Source: a virus (taxonomy: Duplodnaviria > Heunggongvirae > Uroviricota > Caudoviricetes). Taken from it: a stretch of 64,000 nucleotides of DNA. This document shows, one piece after another, positions 7,892-41,228 of this stretch (its first letter is position 1; the number at the start of each line of letters is the position of its first letter). The translations under genes and the position numbers were made by a program. Where the stretch lies: IMG/VR virus record IMGVR_UViG_3300024265_000032. One strand, given 5' to 3'. The notes beneath the pieces are model-generated. The model did not search any database. It was not told where the DNA came from and saw only the letters and a program-made list of their open reading frames with translations.

Positions 7892-8224
7892 CTAGACCTT
7901 GCCCAAATCCTTGAACGCCTTGCGCGTCGCGCCGGTTGTCGACCTGAGTCCCATAAGGGTCTCTGCGATCGTGGCCGCGTTATCGGACCCGAAACCCAGT
8001 TCACGGTCGGGGGTGTACTGACCACCCTCTACGACCTGACTTTCGAGCGATTCCCACGCTGCGGTCAGACCTGCGATGGCGTCATCGACGTTATCGTACC
8101 CCGAGCACGCATCGACAATTCGCTTGTGCTGACGATACGTGACGGCGTTTGCCAAAAACGCATCCTGACCGAACTTCTCGGACGTTCCTTGGGCATCATT
8201 CTTGACAGCGGTGTCAATGCTCAT
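7892..8224 (-). CDS. hypothetical protein (~111 aa, start MSIDT after GGGAGA)
   Basis: RBS GGGAGAAACGT-ATG; last minus-strand gene before the repeat region. Confidence 0.5.
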   Translation of the reverse strand: MSIDTAVKNDAQGTSEKFGQDAFLANAVTYRQHKRIVDACSGYDNVDDAIAGLTAAWESLESQVVEGGQYTPDRELGFGSDNAATIAETLMGLRSTTGATRKAFKDLGKV

Positions 8225-9039
8225 ACGTTTCTCCCGTATTGACTTGCCGCCCCAAGAGCCGAGACTACACCGTCCTGACTTATGGGACGGGCCTAGTAGA
8301 CTCGTTATCGGAACATCACTTATTCGGACCAACCTTGCGTCGGCCACTTATTATCGGTCCCTCGCGGGACTTCGGCTTGCGTCCGAGAATAACGAACCGG
8401 ACCTAGCGTCCGTTTTCGTTCTCTCGTTTTTCATCCTACATAATACTCTATGTAAAGTTATACAAAACGTCAAGCGCGGATTGAAAATAAATTTTCGGCC
8501 CTGAGAGCCGTCAATCGTCGATATTATCGCACTTTGTCCGATAATGCATGATTTGATTTACGTCCGCTTTTTGAGATCATTTATCGGTCAATTGCCTATA
8601 ATATCCCGTTTATCGCGCCCTAGAAGCTGATTCTTATCGGAAAGTCCTATAAGATGTGTTACGCGAGTCCTATAATGCGCGAATTATCGGCAAAAAGCGT
8701 CCTATAACCGTTAAAATCGCGATATTTTCGGTCGATTCCGATAAAAAAGCACGCCCTATAACGAAATCACGGTTAATTGGGTCAAAAACCATGATATTAT
8801 CACACGTACATAACGATTCCCGGAACGGTCCGATAATCCCGCCCCGCGCTACGTCCGATAACCCTCTGGGGGGAGGAAGGTCCGATAAGCAAGACGAGGA
8901 AGAGTCCGATAACCATTTGTCCACGAACGTCCGATAACACAGGGACCGATAACGAAAAACCCGCTTGGCCCGATAACGGGCATGGCGGTCCGATAACTGC
9001 TTTGTGGCTGGTCCGATAACCCATTCTGCGCCATACGAT

Positions 9040-15988: not shown

Positions 15989-16192
15989 GTGGGAAAGTGC
16001 AATACTGCCCAATGTTGTTTTTGCAAGGCGTATATCGTGAATCAAAGTAGACATCGCATAATCATCGACAAAGTTGATATGGCTGGAATTGTCCGTAAAA
16101 ACGTGGACCAGTATCCTAACATATGCGACGATTGCATGGCCGAAGTCCGGAGAGCGATAGGCAACCTCGACATGTCCAAGCCGCCAGGATAA
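15989..16192 (+). CDS. Cys-rich small protein (67 aa)
   Basis: CNTAQCCFC...CDDC. Confidence 0.45.
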   Translation: MGKCNTAQCCFCKAYIVNQSRHRIIIDKVDMAGIVRKNVDQYPNICDDCMAEVRRAIGNLDMSKPPG

Positions 16193-16208
16193 TATGAGGA
16201 AAAATAAA

Positions 16209-16376
16209 TGAACAACAAAAATGTGTTGATTGAGTTCGCATTGATAGTTTCTATGGTTTTGATCATTACATCAATATTTCTCCTGTGGATTAACACTTCT
16301 GCGACCCCCATACAGAGCCAAGAAACACCCCTAGACAAAACGATCTACCCCAGGATGTACCAGGACTACCCTTGAA
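16209..16376 (+). CDS. small membrane protein (~55 aa, MNNKNVLIEFALIVSMVLIITSIFLLW...)
   Basis: GAGGAAAAATAA-ATG; one TM helix. Confidence 0.4.
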
Positions 16377-16529
16377 CCTTTTTGCGTCCTGCTGAGCCAA
16401 TATGAGAAAAATGCACAAACAACCCATAGGAGTCAGAAATGACAAGAATGGCTGTGCTCGTATCGCGATTGTCAAAGATGGCGTTTGGTACTGGACAGAT
16501 TATTTGTATTAAGAGAGGCAGGCAATTTC

Positions 16530-16703
16530 ATGCTACAACAGTGTTGTGTCAAATGTGGAACAGATGTCGATGAAATCAACCTATTCTCGATTGGTGGGTG
16601 TATTCTAACCGAGAAGAACGAAAAGTGCGAGATCAAGGTGTATCTATGTAGTGGGTGTCGCGATGAATTTTGGAATGACTTCATAGGCGAGAAGCCTATC
16701 TAG
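16530..16703 (+). CDS. Zn-ribbon small protein (MLQQCCVKCG...CSGC)
   Basis: GAGGCAGG RBS before internal Met of track ORF 16485..16703. Confidence 0.4.
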   Translation: MLQQCCVKCGTDVDEINLFSIGGCILTEKNEKCEIKVYLCSGCRDEFWNDFIGEKPI

Positions 16704-16711
16704 GAGAAAAC

Positions 16712-17002
16712 ATGTTAGATACAAACAAGACGAGTAACTGGCAAATTGGTGTTGTTGTCGTAATGATTATAGTGGCTATAGTGTCTGGTTGTTTATTTCT
16801 TGCTTTGCGAGATACCGTGTATTCTTGCGAGTGCGTCCTTACTCAACCATTAGTTGCTGTCTCAGGAGAGATTGAGTATCCTGGTACAATATATTCTGTG
16901 ACGTGTCGCGGGACGACAAAAGGGACAGGTAAAGTTTGTACGAAGTCTGTGTGGGTTACAATGTCCGAGTATGAGCGGGTGATGTATGGGAGGAAGAACT
17001 GA
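16712..17002 (+). CDS. membrane protein (96 aa)
   Basis: N-terminal TM helix (IGVVVVMIIVAIVSGCLFLAL). Confidence 0.5.
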   Translation: MLDTNKTSNWQIGVVVVMIIVAIVSGCLFLALRDTVYSCECVLTQPLVAVSGEIEYPGTIYSVTCRGTTKGTGKVCTKSVWVTMSEYERVMYGRKN

Positions 17003-17274
17003 TGAATAAGGTTGATTGGAGACCGAGGCGACCTAAAGATTATGCTTATGCTCGAATCGGCAGAATCTGCATGAATTGTAATTCATGGACTACGCTGAGT
17101 GGTAATTACGTGTGGTACGCTTCTGTGTCTCTGAATAGTATTTCTTCTTCGAGAAGACAAGGACCACGAAGACGTTCATTGGCAAAAGCCAAGAGTGACG
17201 CTGTTCGATTGGCTCGTGAAATGTTGGATGATTATCGGATGGCCATAGACATAGAAACAAAGAATTTTGAATAG
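17002..17274 (+). CDS. paralog A of a 3-member small-protein family (KW..., ...SLAKAKSDAVRLAREMLDDY...NFE)
   Basis: aligns with products of 18453..18740 and 18959..19234. Confidence 0.55.
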   Translation: MNKVDWRPRRPKDYAYARIGRICMNCNSWTTLSGNYVWYASVSLNSISSSRRQGPRRRSLAKAKSDAVRLAREMLDDYRMAIDIETKNFE

Positions 17275-17404
17275 GAGTGTTGTCAATGGAATGGTTGCTT
17301 TTGATCTGGTGTCGAATTGCTCATGGTAAGTACCGTGCACGACACGTAGACGTTACTGGATTTCCGGACGCGACTACTTATGTCATATGTAGTAGGTGTG
17401 GCCG

Positions 17405-18304
17405 ATGAAAATTCAATACATTGAGAAAAGGTTCTCCAAGACATCGCTGGCTATCATTGCCCATGCCAATACCATTATTTACGAATACGCTCAACAAGGG
17501 TACATCCTGACGCTTCGTCAGTTGTACTATCAGTTCGTCGCCAGAGACCTGATAGCTAATAAGCAATCTGAATACAAAAGGTTAGGTTCAGTCATTGCTG
17601 ATGGTCGGTTGGCCGGGATGATTGATTGGGATTCAATCGAGGATCGTGGTCGTAAGGTAAATAGCCCTAGTACGTGGGGAAATCCTTCTGAGATCATCGA
17701 AACATGTGCGAAACAATTCAAACTCGATTTGTGGGCCGGTCAGGAATTTCGTCCCGAAGTGTGGATAGAGAAAGAGGCGCTGCTTTCGATTGCCGAGGCT
17801 GCTTGTGAACCATTGAGGGTGCCGTATTTCGCCTGCAAGGGTTACGTCAGTCAAAGCGCAATGTGGGCCGCTGGGGCTAAGAGGATTACTAAATACATCA
17901 AGGATGGGCAGATTCCCGTTATCATCCATCTTGGAGACCACGACCCAAGTGGTATCGACATGACTCGCGACATTTTCGATCGACTCGATATGTTCGCTTG
18001 TCAACCGATCGAGGTTTCTCGCATTGCTCTAAATATGGATCAGGTGGTCGAGCATAACCCGCCGCCCAATCCCGCCAAGATTACTGATTCTCGGTTCCAG
18101 ACTTATGCTGCCAAGCATGGGGATGAGTCGTGGGAGTTGGATGCTCTGTCTCCGAAGGTTTTGGTCAATTTGATTCAGGGGAAAATTTTGGAGATGCGAG
18201 ACGACAAAATGTGGAGTGTTGTTTACGAGCAGGAAAATCAAGAGAAAGCAACTCTTGCTGCTATTGCGGAGAACTATGAATTTATTAAGGGGACTGTGGA
18301 ATGA
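17405..18304 (+). CDS. Spo11/topoisomerase VI subunit A-like protein (Mini-A-like: winged-helix catalytic Tyr + Toprim)
   Basis: TLRQLYYQFV (5Y-CAP-type R..YY active-site context), EVWIEKEALL (Toprim Glu), IIHLGDHDPSGIDM (Toprim DxD); ~300 aa; no GHKL B-subunit adjacent; AGGTG RBS before ATG at 17405. Confidence 0.55.
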   Translation: MKIQYIEKRFSKTSLAIIAHANTIIYEYAQQGYILTLRQLYYQFVARDLIANKQSEYKRLGSVIADGRLAGMIDWDSIEDRGRKVNSPSTWGNPSEIIETCAKQFKLDLWAGQEFRPEVWIEKEALLSIAEAACEPLRVPYFACKGYVSQSAMWAAGAKRITKYIKDGQIPVIIHLGDHDPSGIDMTRDIFDRLDMFACQPIEVSRIALNMDQVVEHNPPPNPAKITDSRFQTYAAKHGDESWELDALSPKVLVNLIQGKILEMRDDKMWSVVYEQENQEKATLAAIAENYEFIKGTVE

Positions 18305-18401
18305 AACTGTCATGTTTTGTAGTCATTTTGGTACTGGATATCCAAAACTTGGTCTGATAACTAACAAAATATTTCTGTTTTAATTGGAACACGGTTGGGT
18401 T

Positions 18402-18445
18402 TTGGACGTATAATGAGGTAGAAGTCGGGAGTACCCGACTACGGA
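18402..18445 (+). promoter_or_regulatory. early-type promoter TTGGACGTATAATGAG plus 5-prime-UTR hairpin GTCGGG-AGTA-CCCGAC
   Basis: ttttggacgtataatgaggtagaagtcgggagtacccgactacgg immediately upstream of 18453. Confidence 0.55.
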
Positions 18446-18452
18446 GATAGAC

Positions 18453-18740
18453 ATGAAAGAAATCAAATGGGAATCAACATTTCCAAACCATGTCCACGGC
18501 AACCTTGGATGTGTTCATTTACATTGTCGCAGGTCAGAGACGGAAACCAGAAAAAAAAGATGGTGTGGTCGTGCGTATATCATTGGCCTTAATACCTACG
18601 TCCCAAACGGTCCACTAAGGCATTCTCTGGCAAAAGCCAAGGAAGACTGTATTTGTCAGGCTCGTGAAATTATGCTCAATTTCCGGGAGGGTGTGATAGA
18701 AGAACTTAAGAATTTCGACTTGTTGATGGAACAGGAGTAG
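18453..18740 (+). CDS. paralog B of small-protein family
   Basis: MKEIKWES...HSLAKAKEDCICQAREIMLNFREG...LKNF. Confidence 0.55.
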   Translation: MKEIKWESTFPNHVHGNLGCVHLHCRRSETETRKKRWCGRAYIIGLNTYVPNGPLRHSLAKAKEDCICQAREIMLNFREGVIEELKNFDLLMEQE

Positions 18741-18743
18741 AAG

Positions 18744-18962
18744 ATGCACGTAACGGACAAACAACATGATCACAAGCTTCGTGTTTTTGTCGTGGCGGCT
18801 TTTGAGGTAGACACAAGCGATCTCAAAACTTCAGATGAATTGATCAAGGTTGCGACGATGGATACAGTCAACAAGGCTCTGATTAAGGCGTTCGGGGAGT
18901 TTGACACGGTGAGGTTTATGGGCACCACCTTGGCTTCTGGAAAGCCTGTAGATAAATCATGA
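18744..18962 (+). CDS. hypothetical protein (72 aa)
   Basis: ORF track. Confidence 0.5.
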   Translation: MHVTDKQHDHKLRVFVVAAFEVDTSDLKTSDELIKVATMDTVNKALIKAFGEFDTVRFMGTTLASGKPVDKS

Positions 18963-19234
18963 ATGCCGTCAAATGGGAAACATCGGGAGGTGGCAGGTAC
19001 GCTCGTGTTACGATTGGTGCTCTAGACTTGCGATGTAGCGTGTGGCACGAAGAAGGTACGAAATGCTGGATGGCTACCGTCATGTTCCCAGACACTAAGA
19101 CCATGAGGATCGGAGAACTTTGTTCCTCTATGGCAGCATGTAAAGAAGAGGTTTTCAAGGTAGCTCGTGAGATGTTGGAAGACCATTATGTCGCTGTTAA
19201 GGTTGAGATGGCGAACTTTGGGATGGGAGAGTAA
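18959..19234 (+). CDS. paralog C of small-protein family
   Basis: MNAVKWETS...ACKEEVFKVAREMLEDHYVAVKVEMANF. Confidence 0.55.
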   Translation: MNAVKWETSGGGRYARVTIGALDLRCSVWHEEGTKCWMATVMFPDTKTMRIGELCSSMAACKEEVFKVAREMLEDHYVAVKVEMANFGMGE

Positions 19235-19236
19235 AA

Positions 19237-19533
19237 ATGACTGGAATGCTTGTGGTGTTTTACTGTTTTGCTGTCTGCATCATTTTGTTAGCATGGCGAT
19301 GTAATCGAAAAGTCAAAGAGGCTAAAACTTCACGACATGTTATCTCTCTTCCTATCGGGACTAGGTTCACTATGGACGATTCAGAAAGCATCTGGGTTTT
19401 GATTCATTTAGACGGATGCGGCTTATCTGTTGAGTGGATGGGGAATTATTGCTCTGCTCGAATACAGAAACAGAGGTATATTGTTGGAAATGAAAAGCAT
19501 CTAAGACATACGGTAGTAAAGGTGGTGCAGTGA
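19237..19533 (+). CDS. membrane-anchored protein (98 aa)
   Basis: N-terminal TM (LVVFYCFAVCIILLAW). Confidence 0.5.
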   Translation: MTGMLVVFYCFAVCIILLAWRCNRKVKEAKTSRHVISLPIGTRFTMDDSESIWVLIHLDGCGLSVEWMGNYCSARIQKQRYIVGNEKHLRHTVVKVVQ

Positions 19534-19545
19534 CATGGCAGTCAG

Positions 19546-19689
19546 TAAAGAAGACTCTGAGGAAATTCGCAAGATCACGGTGAAGTTGGCCGAGTTCGCC
19601 TTGACGCTCACCGGCTCAGAACTTGAAGACCTGAGAGATGCCCTGCAACACCTAGCTGTCATAGGAGCGGGGAATCGATATTCGTAATA
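19546..19689 (+). CDS. small protein (~47 aa)
   Basis: GTGCAGTGACATGG overlap; not in >=60-aa track. Confidence 0.3.
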
Positions 19690-19771
19690 GCATTAAGGGT
19701 GTTGATGATCATCTTTGTTGTTTGTGCTTTCGTGATTTTAGCGGGCATACCAAGCGCTAAAGGAGAATATC

Positions 19772-19966
19772 ATGTGTGAAGAGAAGAAACCAACTGATAC
19801 CGAAATGTTTGATTGGTTGCAGCAACAAACAATCGGTTATGGTTGCGGATGGATTTGTCGTAAATCACCACATGGACGTGGAATAAGACTACACGAAACT
19901 TCCAGAGAGAGTGCTGTGGTAGATGTTCGCGAGGCTATTGCTGCGGCAATGAAAGATGGTATCTAA
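19772..19966 (+). CDS. hypothetical protein (64 aa)
   Basis: strong RBS AAAGGAGAATATC-ATG. Confidence 0.5.
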   Translation: MCEEKKPTDTEMFDWLQQQTIGYGCGWICRKSPHGRGIRLHETSRESAVVDVREAIAAAMKDGI

Positions 19967-20136
19967 TGGACTCAGCCAAGAAAGAACCAATGGGAAATGG
20001 ATACGATAAGTTTGTTTGTCCAAAATGCGGGCATACCAATCCTATCGTGTTCGGATCGGATAGTATGCAGATGCTGGCAGACAGTGCGGATAAGCTGAAC
20101 TGTGAATCGTGTGGCGTGATTCTCGAAATGAGGTAG
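19966..20136 (+). CDS. Zn-ribbon protein (~56 aa; CPKCG...CESCG)
   Basis: TAATGG overlap with upstream stop. Confidence 0.4.
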   Translation: MDSAKKEPMGNGYDKFVCPKCGHTNPIVFGSDSMQMLADSADKLNCESCGVILEMR

Positions 20137-20142
20137 AGTGAA

Positions 20143-20517
20143 ATGGAAGAAGCTTACGGGAAAGAATTGATTCTCGATCTTAGTATGTGCGATATTTCGA
20201 CATTCAACCGAGAGTCTATCGGTAATTATTTCGACGCTCTGTGCAAACTCATTGATATGCAAGCAGAGGATCGACATTTTTGGGATGACGAAGGCTTGTC
20301 AGAAGAAGAATGTCAAACCGATCCTAAGACAACGGGTGTGAGTGCTGTGCAGTTCATTCTTACCAGCACGATCGTATTGCATTCTCTGCCGAAGCTTGGT
20401 AAGGTTTTTATCAACATATTCTCCTGCAAGGACTTTGACCAAGAGCAGGCTTGCATGTTCACGGTTGAATGGTTCGGCTCCCAAAAGTTCAGGCGACATG
20501 TTGTGGAGAGGCGATAG
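20143..20517 (+). CDS. S-adenosylmethionine decarboxylase (SpeH, class 1b)-fold protein with non-canonical processing site
   Basis: GKELILDLSMC (cf. GKH/LILDLYGC) and GVSAVQFILTSTIVLHSLPKLGKVFINIFSCKD (cf. GVSGVVLLAESHISIHTWPE...VDVFTCG); the Glu-Ser self-cleavage pair is replaced by Thr-Ser-Thr. Confidence 0.55.
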   Translation: MEEAYGKELILDLSMCDISTFNRESIGNYFDALCKLIDMQAEDRHFWDDEGLSEEECQTDPKTTGVSAVQFILTSTIVLHSLPKLGKVFINIFSCKDFDQEQACMFTVEWFGSQKFRRHVVERR

Positions 20518-20520
20518 ACA

Positions 20521-21789
20521 ATGCGTATTATTGAACGATCGGTAATTCTCGACAGCCTCTGTGAAATTGAACATCTTGGTCGCGAGATGTTGATATACCA
20601 TAGAGAAATTCTTGTACGTTTTGTTGTAGAAGAGATCAAGGATCATAGGTTCTATTGTAGTGTAAGTGCTATTGCTGATATTGCTGATATTCCGCTCAAT
20701 TCTAGATTTTTATCAGATGCTCCCAATTTCAAATCAAATCCGAATATAACAAATGATGATAAATTTCGTGTAGCCTTAGTTATTCCGACAGGCTTGGGTG
20801 CTTCTGTTGGTGGCAATGCCGGTGACGGTGGTGCTACCGCAAGGCTTATGGCTTCCGTTTGTGACAAATTGATTACGCATCCCAATGTGGTTAACGCTTC
20901 TGACTTTAACGAGATGACCGATAACACTCTGTACGTCGAAGGGTATACATTAACACAATACCTACTAGGGCATATTGGTTTACAAGAAGTGCGACAGAAT
21001 CGTGTTATTGTCGTTGTTGATGGCTCTGCCGAGCCCGCATATATTCATGCTGCTATCAATGCCGTCAATGCTGCCCGCGTTACTTATGGATTCGATTGTC
21101 TAAAGGTAGTCGTACTAGATGACCCCTTCGTCATGGAAACCGGTTGGTCTAGCCATGGTCGTGCAGCGGGTAGTGTCGCCAACCTGGGCCAATTGTTTGA
21201 GGTACTAGAAAGAGAACGAGATTCGTATGATGCTATCGCATTAACGTCACTCATTGGTATTCCAGATAAAGATCGTGATCATTACTACAAGCATGGTGGA
21301 GTGAATCCGTGGGGCGGTGTTGAAGCCATGCTTACACATGCCGTGTCTCATGTCTTTGGAGTGCCATGCGCTCATGCTCCCATGATGGAGTCACAAAAGA
21401 TAGACAATATGGATTTTGGAATAGTTGATCCGCGATGTTCGGCTGAAACTGTTTCAGTTACGTATCTACCATGTGTTCTGAAAGGACTTAATCGTGCTCC
21501 ACGTATTGTTGACTCTAGTCCCGACATATCATGCTTGGTCATTCCACAAAGATGTTTAGGTATTCCAATGTTGGCTGCATACGACAGAGATATACCCATT
21601 GTTGTTGTCGATGATGAACTTGAGGTTGACGATGTAAATTGTCTTGATCACATTGAGGCGATATCTGTTGATAACTATGTCGAAGCCGTTGGCGTTGTTG
21701 CAGCGATGAGGGCTGGCATTAGTGTTGAATCGCTTGGTCGTCCGATCGGAAGCGTAGAGGTTTGTAGGGAGGGATCATCAAATGATTGA
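20521..21789 (+). CDS. conserved hypothetical protein (422 aa) with Gly-rich PTGLGASVGGNAGDGGATARL motif; translationally coupled to the AdoMetDC-like gene
   Basis: long ORF; ATAGACAATG junction with upstream gene; family not recognised with confidence. Confidence 0.6.
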   Translation: MRIIERSVILDSLCEIEHLGREMLIYHREILVRFVVEEIKDHRFYCSVSAIADIADIPLNSRFLSDAPNFKSNPNITNDDKFRVALVIPTGLGASVGGNAGDGGATARLMASVCDKLITHPNVVNASDFNEMTDNTLYVEGYTLTQYLLGHIGLQEVRQNRVIVVVDGSAEPAYIHAAINAVNAARVTYGFDCLKVVVLDDPFVMETGWSSHGRAAGSVANLGQLFEVLERERDSYDAIALTSLIGIPDKDRDHYYKHGGVNPWGGVEAMLTHAVSHVFGVPCAHAPMMESQKIDNMDFGIVDPRCSAETVSVTYLPCVLKGLNRAPRIVDSSPDISCLVIPQRCLGIPMLAAYDRDIPIVVVDDELEVDDVNCLDHIEAISVDNYVEAVGVVAAMRAGISVESLGRPIGSVEVCREGSSND

Positions 21790-22132: not shown

Positions 22133-22326
22133 TGAAGTTGTTCGAGATTTGTCCATTTTGTTCTCAGCGACGAGCAGCGTTGCTAGAAGACCTAAAGCCT
22201 ATGGTCTTGTCTGGTGACGATAAGGAAATGCAGTGTGATACTTGTAACCGTAGTTGGAAATTGCGTCAATCAGAAGCATTGTTAGAGTTAGCAAGACAGC
22301 AAAGGGTACAAAAGTATGGAAACTAA
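22132..22326 (+). CDS. Zn-ribbon protein (64 aa)
   Basis: CPFCS...CDTCN. Confidence 0.5.
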   Translation: MKLFEICPFCSQRRAALLEDLKPMVLSGDDKEMQCDTCNRSWKLRQSEALLELARQQRVQKYGN

Positions 22327-22927
22327 GACGATAATACTTTCTCTGGACCTAGAAACCACCGGACTAATTCCCGGAAAGCACGTTCCTATCTCTATTGGTG
22401 CTGTGAAACTGGATGAACATAATGAATATAGGAGTAGTGAGAATTCCTTTTACGTGCAGCTTGAATGGGATTCACTTATTGTCGATCCAAAGGCTATGAA
22501 GATCAATGGTTTGGATATAGCCAATCCTCCAGGGTGTGGTCCGTTTGATTGCAACAGCTTGCCAGCCGACGAAGCTCTTTATAAGTTCAAAGAATGGCTT
22601 GGTACCGACTCGTTTGTGGCGATGGGTAAGAACGTTGGCTCGTTTGATCTTCCGATGTTGAGAGCGGTTTGGGAGCCCAGAATGAAATGCTCATGGCCAT
22701 TTGGTTACAGATCAATTGAGTTGAATACATTGTTTTTCACGCTTTCTGAGTTGTTAAATAGGCAATTTGACGATGTTAAAAATGAAATTACCAGAAGGGC
22801 TTGGTGTAAAGTTGGTTGTTTCGAAAATTTGGGGAACCTTATTACACATCACGCTCTTGGTGATGCATGGTGGAATGTATTCGCATGGCAAAATTGTTTG
22901 GAATGGCTGCGAGAATTGGAGGCATAG
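22316..22927 (+). CDS. DEDDh 3-prime-5-prime exonuclease (DnaQ/RNase T-like)
   Basis: Exo I LSLDLETTGL; Exo III HHALGDA; ~200 aa. Confidence 0.75.
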   Translation: METKTIILSLDLETTGLIPGKHVPISIGAVKLDEHNEYRSSENSFYVQLEWDSLIVDPKAMKINGLDIANPPGCGPFDCNSLPADEALYKFKEWLGTDSFVAMGKNVGSFDLPMLRAVWEPRMKCSWPFGYRSIELNTLFFTLSELLNRQFDDVKNEITRRAWCKVGCFENLGNLITHHALGDAWWNVFAWQNCLEWLRELEA

Positions 22928-23408: not shown

Positions 23409-24032
23409 ATGAACGTTAAACCACACCATCCGTTACAGGAATTGTTAGCTCGATTACTTTTCAGTATAGAAACTGTTCCGGTTAGGGTACAGCGTTCTAT
23501 GGTTAATCGTGCTTGTAGGGAAGCCACAAAGTGGCATGAAGAACAGATAGGGAAATTGGAAAGGAAAAGAACTATGATGGAACCAACAGGTAGTTGTTTT
23601 GTTTTTGTTGTGCAGACTGACTGTTATGCTGGCAACTTCAAAGAGAAGATGTCTGCTTTTATGACGGGACAGTACGGGGATGGTGAGTATGGTGAAGAAC
23701 AGGCAAAGCAATTTAGAAATGATAATCCAGACAACGATTCGTTTGAAAAAAATGTCGTACAAATGAACGACGGTCGAGGTTCTTCTGTTACGCAGATTTT
23801 TTGGGGTGAAACACATACCGATTTCGGTATCTTTTTTGATACCCAGCCACATCCTGATCAGATAAAACTGATGATGGATCGTGCTAAGACGTTTGCAAAG
23901 TTGAATCCATATCCAGAAGAAGCAAGAGAAGGTATTATAATTACTGGTTTTCAACTGAGAGAATTCGTTGTGAAGACTACAGACCAAGAACTGGCTGTTT
24001 GGGATGTTGACACAGAAACGGTAGGTGTTTAG
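23409..24032 (+). CDS. hypothetical protein (207 aa)
   Basis: ORF track; stop overlaps GTG of next gene. Confidence 0.55.
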   Translation: MNVKPHHPLQELLARLLFSIETVPVRVQRSMVNRACREATKWHEEQIGKLERKRTMMEPTGSCFVFVVQTDCYAGNFKEKMSAFMTGQYGDGEYGEEQAKQFRNDNPDNDSFEKNVVQMNDGRGSSVTQIFWGETHTDFGIFFDTQPHPDQIKLMMDRAKTFAKLNPYPEEAREGIIITGFQLREFVVKTTDQELAVWDVDTETVGV

Positions 24033-25240
24033 TGAAAATTGTATCTCTTGAAGCAGAAAATGTTAAACATCTGAGGGCTATTTGTATCAAACCTGATGGC
24101 TCGGCTGTCATTGTCGGGGGAGACAATGAGCAAGGGAAGACTTGTGTTTTGGATTCTATCGAATATGCCCTCCATGGTGCGGGGTCTATACCCGCAAAAC
24201 CTATCCGCAACGGTCAGAAGAAGGCTCGCGTGGTGCTCGATCTTGGTGATCTTATAGTTACTCGAACTTTTACTGACAAGAGTACGAATCTTACTGTCAA
24301 GAATAAAGATGGTGCTACCTTTGCTTCTCCGCAGGCTATGCTTGACAAATTGGTTGGCGAACTCAGTTTTGATCCGCTAGCGTTTTCAAAGATGGACGCG
24401 AAGAGGCAGTCTGAAGTCCTGAAGAAGCTTGTCGGATTGGATTTCGACTCTTTGAATCTAGACTACAGGAAGTGTTTCGATGAGAGAACTGTTATCAATC
24501 GCGAAGGTAAGGCTCTGAAGGCTCGCTTAGACGACATGGTGAAACACGACGACGCGCCTGACAAAGAAGTGTCTATTTCTGAGTTGTCCAAGGAATATGC
24601 CCAGGCGACTGAGAATAATCAGGGGGTTATCTTCAAACAGCACGAATTGGATGTCGAAGTCAAAGAACTTGCCGCCTTGAAAAAGCGTGTTGCAGTATTG
24701 GCCAAGAGCGTCAAGACTAAAGAAGCTGCTATCTCGGAAACAGCGAAGTTTGATACACAGTCTATCAAGACTAGGATGGACAAGGCCGAAGAAATGAATA
24801 GTCGCGTCAGACAGAATGGGATATACAACGAAGTCGATGCGCAGGTCTCTGATCTTAGGAAGAAGTCGATAGCTCTTAGTGATAAGATTGTATTTCTGGT
24901 TGACAAGAAGGCCCAGTTGCTAGCTAAGGCTAAGTTCCCAATCAAGGGTCTGGCCATAGATGAAGAAGGCGTTACTTTTCGGGATATTCCTTTTGTTCAG
25001 TGTTCTGCTGCTCAGAGGATTAGGGTTTCTGTCGCAATAGGATTGGCCATGAATCCTACGTTGAGAGTTTTGTTGATCCGTGAGGGATCACTGTTAGACC
25101 CAAAGAACCTAGCAGCTATCGCCAAGATGGCAGAAACTGCTAAGGCTCAGATTTGGATTGAACGAGTATCGAAGGGTAAAGAGTGTTCAATCATCATCGA
25201 AGATGGGTCCGTAGTTGGTCAAATGGTGGAGGTTGAGTAG
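24032..25240 (+). CDS. SbcC/Rad50/RecN-family ABC ATPase with central coiled coil
   Basis: Walker A GGDNEQGKTCVLDSI; coiled-coil middle; signature-like SAAQRIRVSVAIGLA; Walker B/D-loop LRVLLIREGSLLD. Confidence 0.65.
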   Translation: MKIVSLEAENVKHLRAICIKPDGSAVIVGGDNEQGKTCVLDSIEYALHGAGSIPAKPIRNGQKKARVVLDLGDLIVTRTFTDKSTNLTVKNKDGATFASPQAMLDKLVGELSFDPLAFSKMDAKRQSEVLKKLVGLDFDSLNLDYRKCFDERTVINREGKALKARLDDMVKHDDAPDKEVSISELSKEYAQATENNQGVIFKQHELDVEVKELAALKKRVAVLAKSVKTKEAAISETAKFDTQSIKTRMDKAEEMNSRVRQNGIYNEVDAQVSDLRKKSIALSDKIVFLVDKKAQLLAKAKFPIKGLAIDEEGVTFRDIPFVQCSAAQRIRVSVAIGLAMNPTLRVLLIREGSLLDPKNLAAIAKMAETAKAQIWIERVSKGKECSIIIEDGSVVGQMVEVE

Positions 25241-25839: not shown

Positions 25840-26081
25840 CAACAGATGACCCGAGAAGAAGAGCTAACAAGATCGTTATGGACCTGTGTTATCGTATCGA
25901 GAGAATGTGTCGTTACTCTGCGTTAGGAGACAAAGAGGTTGATGATCAATCCATGACCGACAGAAAAACCGTAGAGGGACTCTATGTCTTTTACCGCAAG
26001 AATGGTAATGATGAAAATTCTGCCGCCAGACAAGCTAGGGTTAACGCTATTCGTCTTGTGCTGAATGAGGTTTTTTCATGA
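25836..26081 (+). CDS. hypothetical protein (81 aa)
   Basis: ORF track; ATGA overlaps. Confidence 0.5.
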   Translation: MTTDDPRRRANKIVMDLCYRIERMCRYSALGDKEVDDQSMTDRKTVEGLYVFYRKNGNDENSAARQARVNAIRLVLNEVFS

Positions 26082-26887
26082 AACCTACCTGGATAATACA
26101 GACAAATATGGAAGGTGTCGACACTGGTCCGATGGTCGATGTCGTCAGTGCTCAGGGGATGTTGGCAATACCAATAGAACACACGACAGGAATGCTTTAT
26201 GATTTTAGTCCATACGATCATCAAGACTGTATTCTTTTCTACGGCGACATAGATTTTGTGCGACAAGTTCAAAAGACAGCACCGTTCATTCCGGGTGCTT
26301 GGTGTAATTTCTACAACATGAAATGCAGTACATACTACGCATATTTTGGCGAGCAACTATTGAACAAAAACTACATTATGATGCCAGTTGGTGATCTACT
26401 AAGAAGGTGGGATGAGTTTGTGATCCCTGGTTATCCACATGTATTTGTTCGACCCGACAGTGGTGCGAAGCCGTTCTCTGGACACGTTATCAAATACGGA
26501 GAAAAGCACAAAATCCAAGCGATCATAGAGACGGTTGGTCCTGAGACTTTGGTTGTTGTAGCCCCAAGTAAGCCGATAGTATCAGAGTATCGTTTCGTGA
26601 TTTGTGAAAAAAAGGTTATTGCTGGATGTCAATATCTGCCGGTTGAACTACCTATTTACCCAACCCCCTCTTTGCGTCTTGCCTGTGTTATAGCGAATCA
26701 CGATTGGCAACCTGATTTGTGCTACACGGTGGACATAGCTGAACATGACGGTCAAATGTATCTTCTCGAAATCAACAGCTTCAGTTGCGCAGGTTTGTAC
26801 CAGTGTGATATCGGTGTTGTTGTTCAGTATGCCTCGTTGGCAGCTAAGTTTGAATGGAATGATTACGTTGATCCCATCAACAATTAG
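26078..26887 (+). CDS. ATP-grasp-like protein (269 aa)
   Basis: EYRFVICEKKVIAGCQY ... MYLLEINSFSCAG resembles the ATP-grasp C-terminal E-x-N catalytic loop region. Confidence 0.45.
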   Translation: MKPTWIIQTNMEGVDTGPMVDVVSAQGMLAIPIEHTTGMLYDFSPYDHQDCILFYGDIDFVRQVQKTAPFIPGAWCNFYNMKCSTYYAYFGEQLLNKNYIMMPVGDLLRRWDEFVIPGYPHVFVRPDSGAKPFSGHVIKYGEKHKIQAIIETVGPETLVVVAPSKPIVSEYRFVICEKKVIAGCQYLPVELPIYPTPSLRLACVIANHDWQPDLCYTVDIAEHDGQMYLLEINSFSCAGLYQCDIGVVVQYASLAAKFEWNDYVDPINN

Positions 26888-28410: not shown

Positions 28411-28845
28411 TTATACACCGTAGTCCGTGGCCAGATTTTCGTATTTATCAGGGTCTTCATCCGCCTGTCTGTGGCATTCAGCACACAGATACAGCAAAAA
28501 GAAGGGTCTGGAGTGATCTGGGTGGTGTCCTTGGATGTTTTTTTCGGACATGCAAAGTTCGCATTCATCTAGTGGGACGAGTTTCCCCGTTTTTACAGCC
28601 TGACGGACAAGGTATCGGGCGTGTTCCTTTTCGGGGAATTTTTCCTTGTCTCTTCTGGTTTGTTCTGCATTCGGGGTTGAAGGGTCACATCGGCGGTTTT
28701 CATTGGTCAGCTTGGAAGCGCATGATCGTGAACAGGTGTGTTTTTGTCCTATCTTTACGGTCTGTTTGATGCGACTTTCTTCTTTTTCGAAAGGTTCCCT
28801 ACACCATTCACAATTAACCGTTCGGGTATCGACCATTATTGCCAT
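28411..28845 (-). CDS. HNH-like Zn-finger nuclease candidate (144 aa)
   Basis: CEWCR...CSRSC...ECELCMSEKNIQGHHPDHSRPF..LCAECH. Confidence 0.5.
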   Translation of the reverse strand: MAIMVDTRTVNCEWCREPFEKEESRIKQTVKIGQKHTCSRSCASKLTNENRRCDPSTPNAEQTRRDKEKFPEKEHARYLVRQAVKTGKLVPLDECELCMSEKNIQGHHPDHSRPFFLLYLCAECHRQADEDPDKYENLATDYGV

Positions 28846-29759
28846 GCTTTCAAATTACGTTGGGCATATCGGTCTTTATAGATTATAGCCCTTGGGTTTG
28901 ACAGAACGGCATCTGCAATGATTTCATTGTACAGAGTGTGAATTTGGTTAACTGGTGGTTTATCAGGTAGATCACTACCTTTCTCTGCATTGTTGGCGTC
29001 GAGTTTAGCGTATTCGTAGAGCGTAGATACTTCATCCAAATTCAATTCACCCTGCTTTATAGATAAAAGCAATTCTGCGCGAGGACAAGGAAATGTAATG
29101 TTACCTGTGTCCATGAGTTCTTTGAGTTGATCAAGCAATCTGATTGTATGACACGCGCTGGAAGTACAATAACCATGCAACTTTATTTGTTTTTTCCGCT
29201 TAGCACCCAGTTTGCGATTTGTCTTGCGAGTTTCCATTTGATGATTCATAAATAAAAGACGTATGATTTCATCCATCGATTCTTTCCCTGGATGAAATAC
29301 TTGTCGTATGTTCTCGACCACTGTATCTTCATTGGATGTTCTCTTGATAGGGACGAGTTGAGTACCCGTGACTTTTCTCCATTCTGATTCTGCATATCCC
29401 CCGATGCGTCTGGCAAATTGCTTACATGCAAATAATGATCTGTTACGAAGAACAGTACCTCCAACATCTGTTCGCTCAATGATATTTGGCTCGGGTGCAA
29501 ATAGAATTTCATAGCATAATGGATCGCCGCTAATTAGAAGTTCGAAAAATCGTTTGAGAGAATATATCACGATATCTGGTTCTCTAATGACTTTTTGCTC
29601 GAATCGAGCTAAGCCAGCAAGATACTCGAAAGGGGGTATAGTGAATCCTCGATAGTCGTGATCACTTTCTTGCGTTTTGGTACCGTACAATCTAGACCCA
29701 GCCATTACGAGAAAATCTGGATTGTCGATACTGCGAGTGAGTTCTGCTTCTTTGTTCAT
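28836..29759 (-). CDS. Pol-beta superfamily nucleotidyltransferase (PF10127/RlaP-like candidate)
   Basis: MAGSRLYGTKTQESDHDYRGF = hG[GS]...DhD nucleotidyltransferase motif. Confidence 0.55.
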   Translation of the reverse strand: MNKEAELTRSIDNPDFLVMAGSRLYGTKTQESDHDYRGFTIPPFEYLAGLARFEQKVIREPDIVIYSLKRFFELLISGDPLCYEILFAPEPNIIERTDVGGTVLRNRSLFACKQFARRIGGYAESEWRKVTGTQLVPIKRTSNEDTVVENIRQVFHPGKESMDEIIRLLFMNHQMETRKTNRKLGAKRKKQIKLHGYCTSSACHTIRLLDQLKELMDTGNITFPCPRAELLLSIKQGELNLDEVSTLYEYAKLDANNAEKGSDLPDKPPVNQIHTLYNEIIADAVLSNPRAIIYKDRYAQRNLKAWQ

Positions 29760-34521: not shown

Positions 34522-34710
34522 GTGATGAAAATGAGTGATGAGAAAAACAAGATTGATTGTCGACTGAAGGCCACTGGAACAAGTAAGGCTGACGCGAAGG
34601 TCGTCAAAGACTTGTCTGTCCCTGATCCAGAACCAGCAGTTGGGAAAAAAATTCTTGACGAACTGACTGAAGAGGAATCAAAGGATGACGCAAGATCAAA
34701 GAATTCTTAA
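34522..34710 (+). CDS. hypothetical acidic protein (62 aa)
   Basis: ORF track. Confidence 0.45.
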   Translation: MMKMSDEKNKIDCRLKATGTSKADAKVVKDLSVPDPEPAVGKKILDELTEEESKDDARSKNS

Positions 34711-35272
34711 TGAAGCATATCCCATAATTGAGAAGATAGCAAAATCTCGTAGTAGCAATGGTGCATTCGCGTATTATTGTAACGACGACATAAGACAAGA
34801 AGTATGGTGCATGTGCTTGGAAGCGATGGATCGATACGATCCAAAGGTTGGTCCTATAGAAAACTACTTGGCAAGACATGTGGCTAACCGTATCAAAAAT
34901 CTGAAAAGAGACAAATATTTCCGTCCTGGATCAGATGTACCAAGTTCTGGGTTCGCACGAATCAGAATGAATCTTATTAATGCACTTCCTCTTGGCGGTG
35001 GAGATATTGCTGACCAAGGAACCCTCTTGTGTGGCACGCCCATCAGTTGTGATCCAATAAACTACATATTGTGTGAAGATGATCCAATAAACTACATCTT
35101 GTGTGAAGAAACTTTTGTATATATCAAGGAAAGACTGCCAGAGGATTTACTTTTGCCGTTCGAAGCATTGGTGGGCAACAATAAGGTTCGCAGTCAAGTT
35201 ACCGATCTTGTCAGAAAACATGTTATTGACATTCTAAGAGAAAGGGAAGAAGATGGCGGAAACGAAGAATAA
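34685..35272 (+). CDS. sigma-70-family (ECF-like region 2) factor candidate; contains 30-bp tandem duplication
   Basis: DIRQEVWCMCLEAMDRYDP..GPIENYLARHVANRIKNLKRDKY; tandem DPINYILCED/DPINYILCEE at ~35045-35105. Confidence 0.5.
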   Translation: MTQDQRILNEAYPIIEKIAKSRSSNGAFAYYCNDDIRQEVWCMCLEAMDRYDPKVGPIENYLARHVANRIKNLKRDKYFRPGSDVPSSGFARIRMNLINALPLGGGDIADQGTLLCGTPISCDPINYILCEDDPINYILCEETFVYIKERLPEDLLLPFEALVGNNKVRSQVTDLVRKHVIDILREREEDGGNEE

Positions 35273-38576: not shown

Positions 38577-39109
38577 TTTTACCCACATACACCGTCATCA
38601 GAGATACTCGTGAGCAGAAGGATCACGGATGGACGTTTCCTGCGCATCATCCGAATAGAAGACCGCCAAAGTGTGACGGGACAATTAGCGAAAAGTTGGA
38701 TACCGGAGACTATAGTATGGTAGGATATACCGACATATTCTCCATTGAGAGAAAGGCTGATTTTGCAGAACTTTGGCAGAATTACAGCAGCCAGAAGAGG
38801 CCAGCTTTTGAGGCAGAAATGAAACGCATGTCTCATATTAAACACAGATTCATTATTGTTGAATCGCTGTACACTCCAGATATCATGGAGTTATCTCCAC
38901 CGCAGTTTACGAAGGGTGTTCCTGGGAAATCTTTCGTCAGATGGTTGATGTACATATCTGTTAAGTATAATGTCAACATTATCCCAGCGGGGGCTTGTGG
39001 GAGAAAGATCGCACAAATGCTTTGTGAAGAAGTTGTGCGTGTGACTAAGGATCGTTGGGTTCTACAGGAACCAAAAAGCAAGGATCAGGAGGATTGTCTT
39101 GGTAACTAG
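38564..39109 (+). CDS. ERCC4 (XPF/Mus81/Hef)-type nuclease candidate
   Basis: IRDTREQ ... LDTGDY ... SIERKADFAEL = D-x-RE / GDY / ERKxxxD nuclease motifs. Confidence 0.5.
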   Translation: MSRLILPTYTVIRDTREQKDHGWTFPAHHPNRRPPKCDGTISEKLDTGDYSMVGYTDIFSIERKADFAELWQNYSSQKRPAFEAEMKRMSHIKHRFIIVESLYTPDIMELSPPQFTKGVPGKSFVRWLMYISVKYNVNIIPAGACGRKIAQMLCEEVVRVTKDRWVLQEPKSKDQEDCLGN

Positions 39110-41228
39110 TGCAAAATCGAATTCAGTCGTTAAAACAAAGGTGACCTTGGATGATTTGCTTCATGGTGATCAAGGCAAATTTGGACACATGTTCCCTTTT
39201 CGCGATCGTGTACCAGATATTGCTGATCATATCTTTACAGACCTGAAGAAGTCAAAGATACCATTGGATGAATTTGTAATCGACAAGATGTTGAATATTG
39301 ACTATATTGGTTGGACAGCAAAGGTGATGTTGAATCTCGATTTATTCCCTATTCAAATTGCAACTCTTCAGATCATGTGGAATACTCCATTCCCTATGTT
39401 GATAGCTTGTCGAGGTGGCAGTAAGACATTCATGCTTGCTGTGTATGCGCTTTTGCGAGCCGTATTTGATCCAGGTACTAAGATAGTGATTGTTGGTGCT
39501 GGTCTTAGACAGGCTCGATTGGTATTCAACGAAATAGAAGGTATTTGGAATCGATCTCCGATGCTAAGAGCAATTGTTGGTGGTGGCAAAAAGGCTGGAC
39601 CACGACAGAATGTAGACCTTTGTTATTTTCGCATTGGAGAATCTATCATCTACGCCTTGCCTATGGGTGATGGCACAAAGATTAGAGGTTTCCGTGCGAA
39701 TGTTGTTATTGCTGATGAGTTTGCTTCTATACCCGAAGATGTATTTGATATTGTTGTCCGTGGTTTTGCAGCTACCGCTAAGACCCCAGTAGAAGAAGCG
39801 AGGAAGAGGGCTTTTGACGCGAAGCTCGCCCAGCTTGATATACCATCAGACATAAGGAAGAAGCTAGTCACAGATGACGGAAAGATGCATGGTAATCAAA
39901 TTGTTTATTCAGGTACTGCATATTATGCTTTCAATCACTTCTGCAAGAAGTATGAAATGTGGCAAGAGATCATAAAGAGCCAGGGTGATCCAGAGTTAGT
40001 ATCACAGATTTTTGGTGGTGAGAATATGGTACCTGATGGTTTCAGTTATAAAGACTATGCTATCATTAGAATTCCCCACACTCATCTGCCAATAGGATTG
40101 TTGGATGATAGACAGTTAGCTCACGCCAAAGCTACGCTTCCAAGGAACATTTACTTGATGGAGTACGGTGCTGTTTTCGTGAAGGATTCCGATGGATTCT
40201 ATCCAAGAAGTCTGGTGGAGGGATGTACTGTCGGACCGAACAAACCAATTGCGACTCCAGATGGTGATGTAACATTTACACCATACATGAGAGCAGAATC
40301 AAAGCGTACATACGTAGTTGGTATTGATCCTGCTGCCGAACGAGATAACTTGGCTATAGTCGTGATAGAAGTACGTGCTAATCATTACCGAGTGATACAT
40401 TGTTGGGTTGTCAACAAAAAAGAATTCACGAACAGGAAGAAGCGCGGACTTATTACGGACGATGACTATTATGCATATTGTTGTTCTCGGATACGAGAAA
40501 TTGTGAGATTATTTAATCCTATTCGCATAGAGATGGATAGTCAGGGTGGTGGATATGCTGTTGCAGAGATGTTGCGGAACAAGAAATTGTTGGACATTAA
40601 AGATGGAGATTTCCCAATCTATGAAGTCATAGATTTTGACGAGCCTAAGTCTACGGATGGAGAAACTGACGGGCGGCATATTTTGCATCTGGTACAACAG
40701 AGTACGGAATTCAACCAGAATGCCAACATAGCGCTTCACAAAAGTCTTGAAACTCGCTCCCTTTTGTTTCCAGCTTTTGACAGCGTAAAAATGTATGCAG
40801 CAATTGAAGCGGAAAAATCGATGGGTGTTGTGTTTGACACATACGAGGATTGTGTGTTTAATATAGAGGAACTGAAAAACGAACTTTGCACCATCCAAAT
40901 GACCGAAACTGCTACTGGCAAGGAAAGATTTGATACACCACAAGTAATTCAGCACGGTGTTGTCGAAGGTCGTTTACGAAAGGGTAGATTGAAAAAAGAC
41001 AGGTACACTGCACTTCTTCTGGCTCACAAATACATTTATGACGAAAGTATCTCCGAAGGTGAAGAGATAGATTACAACGATGTGGCTGGAAACATCGAAA
41101 AACGTTCCAAGACGCCAGATAAAGACGAGCCTATGTACCGGGGTCCAGGTCTTGGTCGAATGCATAATGCACAAGGGGCTCGTGGCGGGGGTCTTTTCAA
41201 AGCCGTGAAGCGTGGTAAGCGTCTCTAG
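39099..41228 (+). CDS. terL: terminase large subunit
   Basis: Walker A-like ACRGGSKTFM, Walker B VVIADEFASI, C-terminal RNaseH-like nuclease VVGIDPAAERDNLAIVVIE; followed by portal. Confidence 0.85.
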   Translation: MVTSAKSNSVVKTKVTLDDLLHGDQGKFGHMFPFRDRVPDIADHIFTDLKKSKIPLDEFVIDKMLNIDYIGWTAKVMLNLDLFPIQIATLQIMWNTPFPMLIACRGGSKTFMLAVYALLRAVFDPGTKIVIVGAGLRQARLVFNEIEGIWNRSPMLRAIVGGGKKAGPRQNVDLCYFRIGESIIYALPMGDGTKIRGFRANVVIADEFASIPEDVFDIVVRGFAATAKTPVEEARKRAFDAKLAQLDIPSDIRKKLVTDDGKMHGNQIVYSGTAYYAFNHFCKKYEMWQEIIKSQGDPELVSQIFGGENMVPDGFSYKDYAIIRIPHTHLPIGLLDDRQLAHAKATLPRNIYLMEYGAVFVKDSDGFYPRSLVEGCTVGPNKPIATPDGDVTFTPYMRAESKRTYVVGIDPAAERDNLAIVVIEVRANHYRVIHCWVVNKKEFTNRKKRGLITDDDYYAYCCSRIREIVRLFNPIRIEMDSQGGGYAVAEMLRNKKLLDIKDGDFPIYEVIDFDEPKSTDGETDGRHILHLVQQSTEFNQNANIALHKSLETRSLLFPAFDSVKMYAAIEAEKSMGVVFDTYEDCVFNIEELKNELCTIQMTETATGKERFDTPQVIQHGVVEGRLRKGRLKKDRYTALLLAHKYIYDESISEGEEIDYNDVAGNIEKRSKTPDKDEPMYRGPGLGRMHNAQGARGGGLFKAVKRGKRL

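Follow-up and report, generated by a model that had tools for sequence, protein, structure and literature searches.

A typical phage Mini-A gene and a separate family of small paralogous proteins in an uncultured tailed phage

The protein encoded at positions 17405 to 18304 (plus strand) of the window, which is the whole stretch of 64,000 nucleotides analysed here, belongs, on the basis of its sequence, to the previously described phage family Mini-A, of which it is typical. Three small paralogous genes lie around it, and the locus is probably best explained as a typical Mini-A gene and a separate small paralog family that are neighbours by descent, without a demonstrable functional link. The sequence-only reading had called Mini-A-type proteins poorly characterised. 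This is correct, but the family has already been named and is widely annotated, and the locus is therefore not a discovery.

The Mini-A protein and its relatives

Takahashi, Da Cunha, Krupovic, Mayer, Forterre and Gadelle described Mini-A as a subfamily of type IIB topoisomerase A subunits, with RxxY/FY, E, DxDxxG and xWELDAL as its signatures (NAR Genom Bioinform 2019/2020, PMC7671362). A Spo11/Topo VI-A-like, Mini-A-like phage protein of about 300 amino acids had been proposed from the sequence alone, and this identification stands: the tyrosine, the Toprim glutamate and the DxD pair are present, and the large terminase gene at 39099-41228, found in a Pfam scan of the window ORFs, shows that the DNA is from a phage. 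In a mechanical ORF list, the reading frame opens at a GTG at 17396; the start is taken as the ATG at 17405 (MKI...), since the homologues and the source gene call begin there. The resulting product of 299 amino acids is a stand-alone protein resembling a type IIB topoisomerase A subunit, with only a truncated (half) 5Y-CAP and a Toprim domain, which agrees with the size and architecture of the subfamily.

The three motifs that had been pointed out earlier were all located, namely TLRQLYYQFV at residues 36-45 (17510-17539), EVWIEKEALL at residues 118-127 (17756-17785) and IIHLGDHDPSGIDM at residues 173-186 (17921-17962), and a fourth, SWELDAL at residues 242-248 (18128-18148), was absent from that reading. 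The key residues in these motifs are R38, Y42, E122, D178, D180 and W243-ELDAL. The tyrosine context R38-Q-L-Y41-Y42 agrees with the published RxxY/FY signature (PMC7671362), E122 (in IEKE) and D178-H-D180-P-S-G183 provide the glutamate and the DxDxxG of the Toprim domain, and the xWELDAL box separates Mini-A from Topo VI and Topo VIII. An alignment of 36 homologues shows no variation at R38, Y42, E118, E122, G177-DHDPSG-183 and W243-ELDAL-248, and Y41 is conserved in at least 90%; the tyrosine and the acidic Toprim residues, whose lack of conservation would have spoken against the sequence-only reading, are thus conserved among homologues. Takahashi et al. likewise found the RxxYY tyrosine and the preceding arginine in all the Mini-A proteins that they examined (PMC7671362).

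The profile searches that had been proposed gave a divided outcome. The Mini-A/PHROG 6247 profile (phrog_6247) matches over the full length (E 2e-109), whereas Pfam TP6A_N remains below threshold (E 0.13, 12.6 bits against a cut-off of 26) and gives even a weak match in only 6 of the 36 homologues. Searches of the PDB sequences with phmmer (using the protein) and hmmsearch (using the 36-sequence profile) reached no Topo VI-A or Spo11, and the link to the solved structures of these proteins is visible by fold and motifs only. An NCBIfam match to IF-2alpha was dismissed as spurious. Among GenBank phages, 77 records carry a Mini-A homologue, several of them annotated as DNA topoisomerase or topoisomerase VI. 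Proteins of Pseudomonas and Salmonella phages, groups that PMC7671362 names, are 44-54% identical, and the closest copy is Pam3 gp41 at 54%. The cultured carriers include the Pseudomonas NP1/PaMx25-like phages, Salmonella BP12C/SPN19, Xylella Sano/Salvo and Pseudanabaena Pam3. Apart from this identity of at most 54% to any GenBank phage copy, no substantive difference from other Mini-A proteins was observed, and the protein shares with them RxxYY, E, DxDxxG, the diagnostic xWELDAL box, the viral origin and the lack of a nearby B subunit. Megablast of 16700-19540 found no near relative among GenBank phages. The genome that carries the locus belongs to an uncultured large tailed phage of at least 127 kb (its own contig reaches 126.7 kb) from sediment-type metagenomes.

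Assignment to Topo VI-A or Spo11 proper (TP6A_N plus Toprim; PDB 1D3Y, 2ZBK and 8URU) was rejected. In addition to scoring below the TP6A_N gathering threshold, the protein is about 70-100 residues shorter, does not have the full 5Y-CAP with its B-binding N-terminal part, and carries WELDAL in the place of the T2BI box of Topo VI. Topo VI-A and Spo11 also have a partner B subunit (a GHKL ATPase or Top6BL), and none was found in the window: as the sequence-only reading had stated, the 30 window ORFs scanned with Pfam contain no GHKL/HATPase match. A virus-encoded protein without an adjoining Bergerat-fold B subunit, as seen in these 64 kb of the genome, is what is expected of Mini-A.

The small paralogs and their cassette

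The three proteins of about 90 amino acids are indeed paralogs. They are encoded on the plus strand at 17002-17274 (paralog 1, 90 amino acids), 18453-18740 (paralog 2, 95 amino acids) and 18959-19234 (paralog 3, 91 amino acids), and represent the 17002-type, 18453-type and 18959-type subgroups of the family, respectively. BLASTP relates paralog 1 to the other two copies with E values of 4e-14 and 4e-16 and paralog 2 to paralog 3 with 1e-6; the family HMM recognises all three (E 2e-33 for paralog 1) and found no fourth copy in the window. The shared residues are W6, G20, C26, W38, G54, S59, K64, ARE71-73, E85 and NF88-89. Eight database members group with paralog 1, while paralogs 2 and 3 have ten (62-78% identity) and fourteen (52-88% identity) orthologues, respectively. 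The AF2 model of paralog 1 (pLDDT 91) has five strands and a helix at residues 60-89, and the predicted fold of the family is, with confidence, a five-strand beta-sheet with a 30-residue C-terminal helix.

Neither Pfam nor PHROG has a family that the small paralogs reach, IMG/VR gave no match when it was scanned with their alignment, and DUF6894 was rejected as their identity, since the matches of 8 of 35 members are too weak (best E 0.0023). PADLOC assigns neither Mini-A nor the paralogs to a defence system. In their size, fast evolution, multi-copy state and location in a variable early region, the paralogs are like small phage ORFan families with anti-defence or host-takeover functions, such as the AcrIF24 N-domain, and their sheet-plus-helix fold is weakly similar to that of small inhibitors; homology to any named family is not detectable, and the likeness is by analogy only. 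Most likely, the paralogs are small proteins that bind a protein or a nucleic acid and act during infection in a lineage-specific way.

Paralogs 2 and 3 are part of a cassette with two other conserved small genes, in the order paralog 2, a 72-amino-acid ORF (18744-18962, plus strand), paralog 3 and a 98-amino-acid ORF at the end (19237-19533, plus strand). The 72-amino-acid ORF is not a paralog and has no Pfam or PHROG assignment; by tblastn it is found at the equivalent position in five relatives (L002, L004, L009, L014 and L032), in which the 98-amino-acid ORF is also syntenic. The earlier claim that one of the paralogs has its own promoter and leader hairpin was borne out. Upstream of paralog 2, a promoter-like element (18386-18417, plus strand) consists of GGAACA, 17 nt and TATAAT (18409-18414), with the conserved block TTGGACGTATAATGAG at 18402-18417. 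In L002, L009, L004 and L014 the element precedes the orthologous gene as well, and the window contains five near-identical copies in all (TGGAACA-N17-TATAAT), where 0.02 would be expected. The assignment is based on this conservation and recurrence; a generic sigma-70 scan left the promoter at 18409 uncalled owing to its weak -35 hexamer. The 5' leader hairpin at 18423-18440 (plus strand), which has a 7-bp stem and an AGUA loop (-11.7 kcal/mol, z -2.3), lies between this promoter and the ribosome binding site (GGAG, 18443-18446). In L002 the equivalent place holds another hairpin, of 10 bp (z -5.7), and the promoter copies at 13330 and 60240 likewise precede hairpins. With the internal promoter between them, paralogs 2 and 3 are set apart from Mini-A.

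Another small gene was left uncalled directly upstream of Mini-A. It encodes a Cys/His mini-protein of 40 amino acids (C..AH...C..C; 17286-17408, plus strand), with GGAG 7 nt upstream and a TGA that overlaps the ATG of Mini-A. By tblastn, it is 60-68% identical in L036, L037 and L038, and a second, diverged copy abuts Mini-A in L031 and L036; the mini-ORF is not conserved in front of Mini-A genes that are more distant.

Do the paralogs belong with Mini-A?

It had been suggested that the paralogs are amplified partners or regulators that form a functional module with Mini-A as the DNA-cleaving or DNA-gating enzyme; in such a machine they would substitute for the missing B subunit. The genes are interleaved in the window and in L002, L009, L032, L034, L038 and L039, and Takahashi et al. 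leave room for a "Mini-B" or another Mini-A partner (PMC7671362). A family member lies directly upstream of Mini-A in the window, L034, L038 and L039, and 0.5-1 kb downstream in L002, L009 and L032. Nevertheless, this module is very improbable. When the family was looked for beside Mini-A in other genomes, it was confined to close relatives, in which Mini-A is 69% identical or more. A copy is missing from all 53 distant loci (Mini-A at most about 61% identical, each with 1.5 kb or more of sequence downstream), a result that a broader HMM also gave, and the family is found in none of 50,697 GenBank phage records, including the 77 with Mini-A. Even in L016, with a 72%-identical Mini-A, no copy is seen in the 6 kb upstream and the 1.4 kb downstream of it. 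The family sizes are also far apart, with 186 clusters at 50% identity for the paralogs against at least 8000 clusters at 90% identity for Mini-A. Conversely, L004 and the window are collinear outside 17002-18350; in that interval a deletion scar retains only codons 1-13 of Mini-A, and this lineage kept the promoter and the cassette with paralogs 2 and 3. Copies without Mini-A nearby are found in L008 and L011 (single copies, no Mini-A within about 3 kb on either side) and in L111 (three family ORFs, of which one is a tandem fusion, in a 4-kb contig without a Mini-A match), although such genomes are mostly short contigs and Mini-A could sit elsewhere in them. An obligate partner or "Mini-B" is expected to co-occur with Mini-A across its diversity, and the paralogs do not; together with the separate promoter of paralogs 2 and 3, these observations speak against the proposed functional module, and the paralogs show no sign of being Mini-A partners. 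No other family takes this place, as none is common to more than 11 of 88 diverse loci, and across 50 loci no translationally coupled ORF upstream of Mini-A extends beyond the immediate clade. A clade-specific interaction is conceivable because a family member often adjoins Mini-A in the closest relatives. In one clade of large sediment phages, Mini-A might have recruited the 17002-type paralog, the 40-amino-acid Cys/His mini-protein or both as lineage-specific partners that gate or target cleavage, a non-GHKL stand-in for the B subunit. Such recruitment is hardly to be expected; if true, paralog 1, the mini-ORF and Mini-A would form a three-gene unit, which is exactly what L004 misses.

Two further explanations concern the activities of the proteins themselves. 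The paralogs could be phage regulators of transcription or RNA that bind nucleic acids with a dsRBD-like or AP2/integrase-arm-like sheet and helix. Two members match Arm-DNA-bind_3 weakly (E 0.06), and in the paralog alignment the long helix has at its N-terminus a conserved S-x-x-K-A-K that is reminiscent of the KKxAK position of dsRBDs. This is possible but unlikely, as all scores lie in the noise range for an alpha/beta protein of 90 amino acids, hhalign against the AP2 domain and the lambda Int arm domain gave nothing, the 18959-type subgroup has not kept the K62 position, and the lack of any Pfam or PHROG family also counts against it. Mini-A, in turn, could be a plain metal-dependent nuclease like MksG/JetD (the plasmid-defence nuclease of Wadjet/MksBEFG; PDB 8B7F), which would hydrolyse the DNA of the host, a plasmid or a competitor, forming no covalent tyrosine intermediate and not resealing the cut. 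The absence of an ATPase partner fits this, and Toprim nucleases such as OLD and RNase M5 exist. It is, however, decidedly unlikely: the invariant tyrosine and arginine, kept in all 36 homologues and throughout the published family, count against pure hydrolysis, which gives no reason for keeping them. MksG/JetD is furthermore encoded in host defence islands with a JetABC/MksBEF operon, whereas the Mini-A of the window is phage-encoded and lies in no such operon, and PADLOC shows neither a JetD/MksG match nor credible Wadjet partner genes.

Proposed roles and meaning

As a typical Mini-A, the enzyme would act as a homodimer. From the conserved residues and the family, Tyr42 (in RQLYY) is predicted to attack a DNA phosphodiester, with Mg2+ bound by Glu122, Asp178 and Asp180, which would yield a covalent and resealable 5'-phosphotyrosyl break. 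The tyrosine may be covered by the WELDAL box of the partner subunit. Since there is no ATPase subunit, cleavage and rejoining would be ATP-independent, as in Spo11-like breakage or nicking-closing. Most probably, Mini-A serves phage DNA replication or recombination, a role that is favoured because the gene sits among DNA-metabolism genes, which include those for a DnaQ-like exonuclease and an AAA_23 ATPase in the window and a DNA ligase in L002. Other phage genes in the window encode a sigma-70-like protein and a methyltransferase. The paralogs form a separate, small, fast-evolving phage family that is prone by itself to a multi-copy state, whose triplication presumably predates the divergence of the related phages. 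They probably share the variable early/DNA-metabolism region with Mini-A by descent, with paralogs 2 and 3 and two other small genes forming their own promoter-driven cassette.

Mini-A proteins are common among phages and viruses of archaea, and in the literature on Mini-A no report of biochemical activity was found for any member. Any handle on their function would be valuable, as Topo VI and Spo11 may stem from an ancestor similar to Mini-A. The locus described here does not offer such a handle, with a standard enzyme and proposed partners that fail to co-occur, and the cultured Mini-A phages are far better experimental entry points. The lack of a family conserved beside Mini-A at 88 loci favours the idea that Mini-A acts by itself or together with host factors. 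What is new is the definition of a small multi-copy phage protein family with a confidently predicted fold, and the five-member family of promoters with 5' hairpins could possibly aid the annotation of transcription units in related phages.

Mini-A and its phage genome

The ORF at 17405-18304 (+) encodes a protein of 299 aa; the ATG at 17405 is the start in the source's gene call and in all homologues, and a mechanical ORF list opens the same ORF at a GTG (17396). The sequence-only reading described this product as a stand-alone Topo VI-A/Spo11-like (Mini-A-type) protein, and the motifs it quoted are all located where it placed them. This identity is supported by an end-to-end match to PHROG 6247 ("DNA topoisomerase", E 2e-109) and by all the features that define Mini-A: a virus-encoded protein of ~300 aa with 5Y-CAP and Toprim alone, the motifs RxxY/FY, Toprim Glu and DxDxxG, a C-terminal "xWELDAL" box that sets Mini-A apart from Topo VI and Topo VIII, and the absence of a B subunit (Takahashi et al., PMC7671362). 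As that reading had also noted, no GHKL/Bergerat ATPase was found among the 30 window ORFs scanned with Pfam. In an alignment of 36 homologues (55-100% identity), R38, Y42, E118, E122, G177-DHDPSG-183 and W243-ELDAL-248 are invariant, and thus the conservation expected of the tyrosine and the Toprim acidic residues was observed. PADLOC gave no JetD/MksG assignment.

Of the profiles proposed for checking this identity, the Mini-A one (PHROG 6247) matched, but Pfam TP6A_N did not (E 0.13, 12.6 bits; cut-off 26); TP6A_N has a weak match in only 6 of the 36 homologues, and a profile search of the PDB gave no match. The sequence-profile link to Topo VI-A is therefore almost invisible, in agreement with the published label of Mini-A, "distant homologs". 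The family is already named, widespread and routinely annotated. Using tblastn, homologues were detected in 77 GenBank phages, with identities below 60% throughout. The best match is Pseudanabaena phage Pam3 gp41 (54%), annotated "DNA topoisomerase VI", and other carriers include Pseudomonas NP1/PaMx25-like, Salmonella BP12C/SPN19, Xylella Sano/Salvo and Roseobacter RDJL phages. At least 8000 clusters of homologues are present in a collection of 5.8 billion proteins.

The locus sits in a phage genome, which encodes a large terminase (39099-41228), a DnaQ-like exonuclease (22316-22927) and an AAA_23 ATPase (24032-25240), as well as a DNA methyltransferase. Proteins identical to those of the window are present on metagenome contigs as long as 126.7 kb. 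The nearest relatives (L031, L032, L036 and L098; SDBT/SDBS/SDBU records) come from metagenomes Ga0209976 and Ga0114923, and an Asgard-virus preprint that deals with deep-sea sediments off Shimokita cites contigs with these prefixes. Judged by its promoters and Shine-Dalgarno sites, the phage has a bacterial appearance. The GC skew changes sign at ~12 kb, ~27 kb and ~34 kb, the coding strand switching with it, and the first 12 kb have a raised GC content (~0.50) and ORFs of at most ~165 aa.

Several other genes point to further capacities. A gene resembling S-adenosylmethionine decarboxylase (AdoMet_dc, E 1e-13; 20143-20517, +) directly precedes a DUF3326 gene (E 2e-89; 20521-21789, +), a pair that recurs in the related loci L004 and L013; together with an R2K ATP-grasp gene (26078-26887), these may form an auxiliary metabolic module related to polyamines. 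Immediately before a glycosyltransferase, a GDP-mannose dehydratase, the terminase and the structural block lies a gene (34685-35272, +) for a 195-aa protein that matches sigma-70 region 2 (E 4e-5); this protein is a candidate for a phage-encoded sigma factor that serves the late genes. An RNA ligase (PF09414, E 2e-29; 61795-62763, +) and a nucleotidyltransferase of the RlaP type, an RNA repair pathway family (28836-29759, -), may equip the phage for RNA repair, for instance against defences that cleave tRNA.

Possible activity and role of Mini-A

The window protein has the Mini-A fold and invariant catalytic residues, in a phage context and with no ATPase partner in view. By analogy with Topo VI/Spo11 enzymology, it would act as a dimer, Tyr42 would be joined to DNA through a 5'-phosphotyrosyl link, Mg2+ would be held by E122, D178 and D180, and the WELDAL box may cap the tyrosine of the other subunit. 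The strictly kept tyrosine favours covalent, reversible cleavage over MksG-like hydrolysis. The biological role was unsettled for the whole family in a 2024 review, and a search of papers from 2022-2026 gave nothing on it. Replication initiation has been proposed in skuldviruses, and the neighbours of the window gene suggest replication or recombination.

Transcription units around Mini-A

From 16.7 to 19.6 kb, small genes lie in series, all on one strand. An uncalled 40-aa ORF (17286-17408, +) has the pattern C..AH...C..C and GGAG as its RBS, and its stop overlaps the start of Mini-A (ATGA). This ORF is 60-68% conserved in three close relatives, L031 and L036 have a second copy that has diverged, and there is no conservation of it beside distant Mini-A genes.

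Downstream of Mini-A, TTGGACGTATAATGAG (18402-17) contains a perfect TATAAT at 18409-14 with GGAACA 17 nt upstream. A generic promoter scan did not call this element; in L002, L009, L004 and L014, the block is conserved 5' of the orthologue. Its core, CGTATAATG..TAG.AG, also occurs at 13055, 13330, 57838 and 60240, all on the + strand (five matches observed, 0.02 expected). With the copy at 18407, these are five near-identical promoter-like elements of the form TGG.ACA, ~17 nt, (TTGGA)CGTATAATG..TAG.AG, with the TGG.ACA upstream box in common. The element is followed by a hairpin at 18423-40 (-11.7 kcal/mol, z -2.3), and in L002 this position is taken by another hairpin, which is stronger (z -5.7). 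Hairpins at matching offset also follow the 13330 and 60240 copies, so that three of the five copies lead into a 6-7-bp hairpin at equal offset, two with an AGUA loop. Recurrence and conservation indicate that the promoter and hairpin noticed earlier are real; the element is generic to the transcription units of this phage, rather than a regulator reserved for the paralog. Since it opens a new unit for paralogs 2 and 3, these need not be co-expressed with Mini-A in the upstream unit.

The small paralog family and its relation to Mini-A

The three ~90-aa paralogs (17002-17274, 18453-18740 and 18959-19234) are genuinely related (pairwise BLASTP E 4e-14, 4e-16 and 1e-6) and have W6, G20, C26, W38, G54, S59, K64, A71-R-E73, E85 and N88-F89 in common; no fourth copy is present in the window. 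No match was found in Pfam, PHROG, NCBIfam or PADLOC. A word-indexed search gave 35 clusters, and 186 clusters at E <= 1e-3, nearly all of 85-105 aa, came from running HMMER exhaustively over 1.84 billion representatives. In an AlphaFold model (pLDDT 91), a sheet of five strands leads into a helix of 30 residues. Fold searches gave nothing decisive (T3SS chaperones ~5; dsRBD and AP2 domains 4.3-4.9), and BFVD had no match at E <= 1e-3.

The sequence-only reading had proposed that Mini-A and the paralogs form a functional module, and a screen of other genomes argues against this. A paralog HMM was used to scan the surroundings of Mini-A homologues at 95 loci, which were taken from IMG/VR and JGI metagenomes. 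Paralogs were present solely at loci whose Mini-A shares at least 69% identity with the window copy (L002, L009, L031, L032, L034, L038, L039 and L098). Among loci with at least 1.5 kb of downstream sequence, they were found at 1 of 54, and at none of the 53 with Mini-A identity of ~61% or lower; an HMM rebuilt on 181 family members did not change this outcome. In L016, a 168-kb contig with a 72% identical Mini-A, the 6 kb upstream and the 1.4 kb downstream contain no paralog, and none of the GenBank phages has the family.

The paralogs also occur without an intact Mini-A. L004 (ncbi GCA_044344285.1 JAZHCH011236453.1) is collinear with window 16001-20600 save for 17002-18350. At its junction (8100-8540), Mini-A is reduced to its first 13 codons (MKIRYIEKRFSQT), out of register thereafter, the upstream Cys mini-ORF is truncated, and an unrelated 80-aa gene occupies the place of Mini-A. 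The junction has the appearance of a scar from a deletion or replacement. L004 has intact copies of the promoter, paralog 2, the 72-aa ORF (18744-18962), paralog 3 and the 98-aa ORF (19237-19533). L008 and L011 have one paralog copy each, with ~3 kb Mini-A-free flanks on either side. In a distant phage, L111 (418-3934; logan SRR28295994_108700) has three family ORFs, one of which (181 aa) fuses two copies head to tail, and this 4-kb contig lacks any ~300-aa ORF and hence an evident Mini-A gene.

When ORFs within 4 kb of Mini-A were clustered over 88 non-identical loci, no family occurred in more than 11, and the ORF abutting the Mini-A start differs at almost every locus. The comparative context thus does not link the paralogs to Mini-A; both share a hypervariable region of one phage clade, and their association is synteny by descent. 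The multi-copy state belongs to the small family in its own right. Three groups can be told apart among its database members, one for each window copy and orthologous to it (18959 type, 14 members; 18453 type, 10; 17002 type, 8 looser ones), which indicates that the triplication predates the divergence of these phages and that all three copies are maintained. It can only be proposed that they are small binding proteins with a lineage-specific function.
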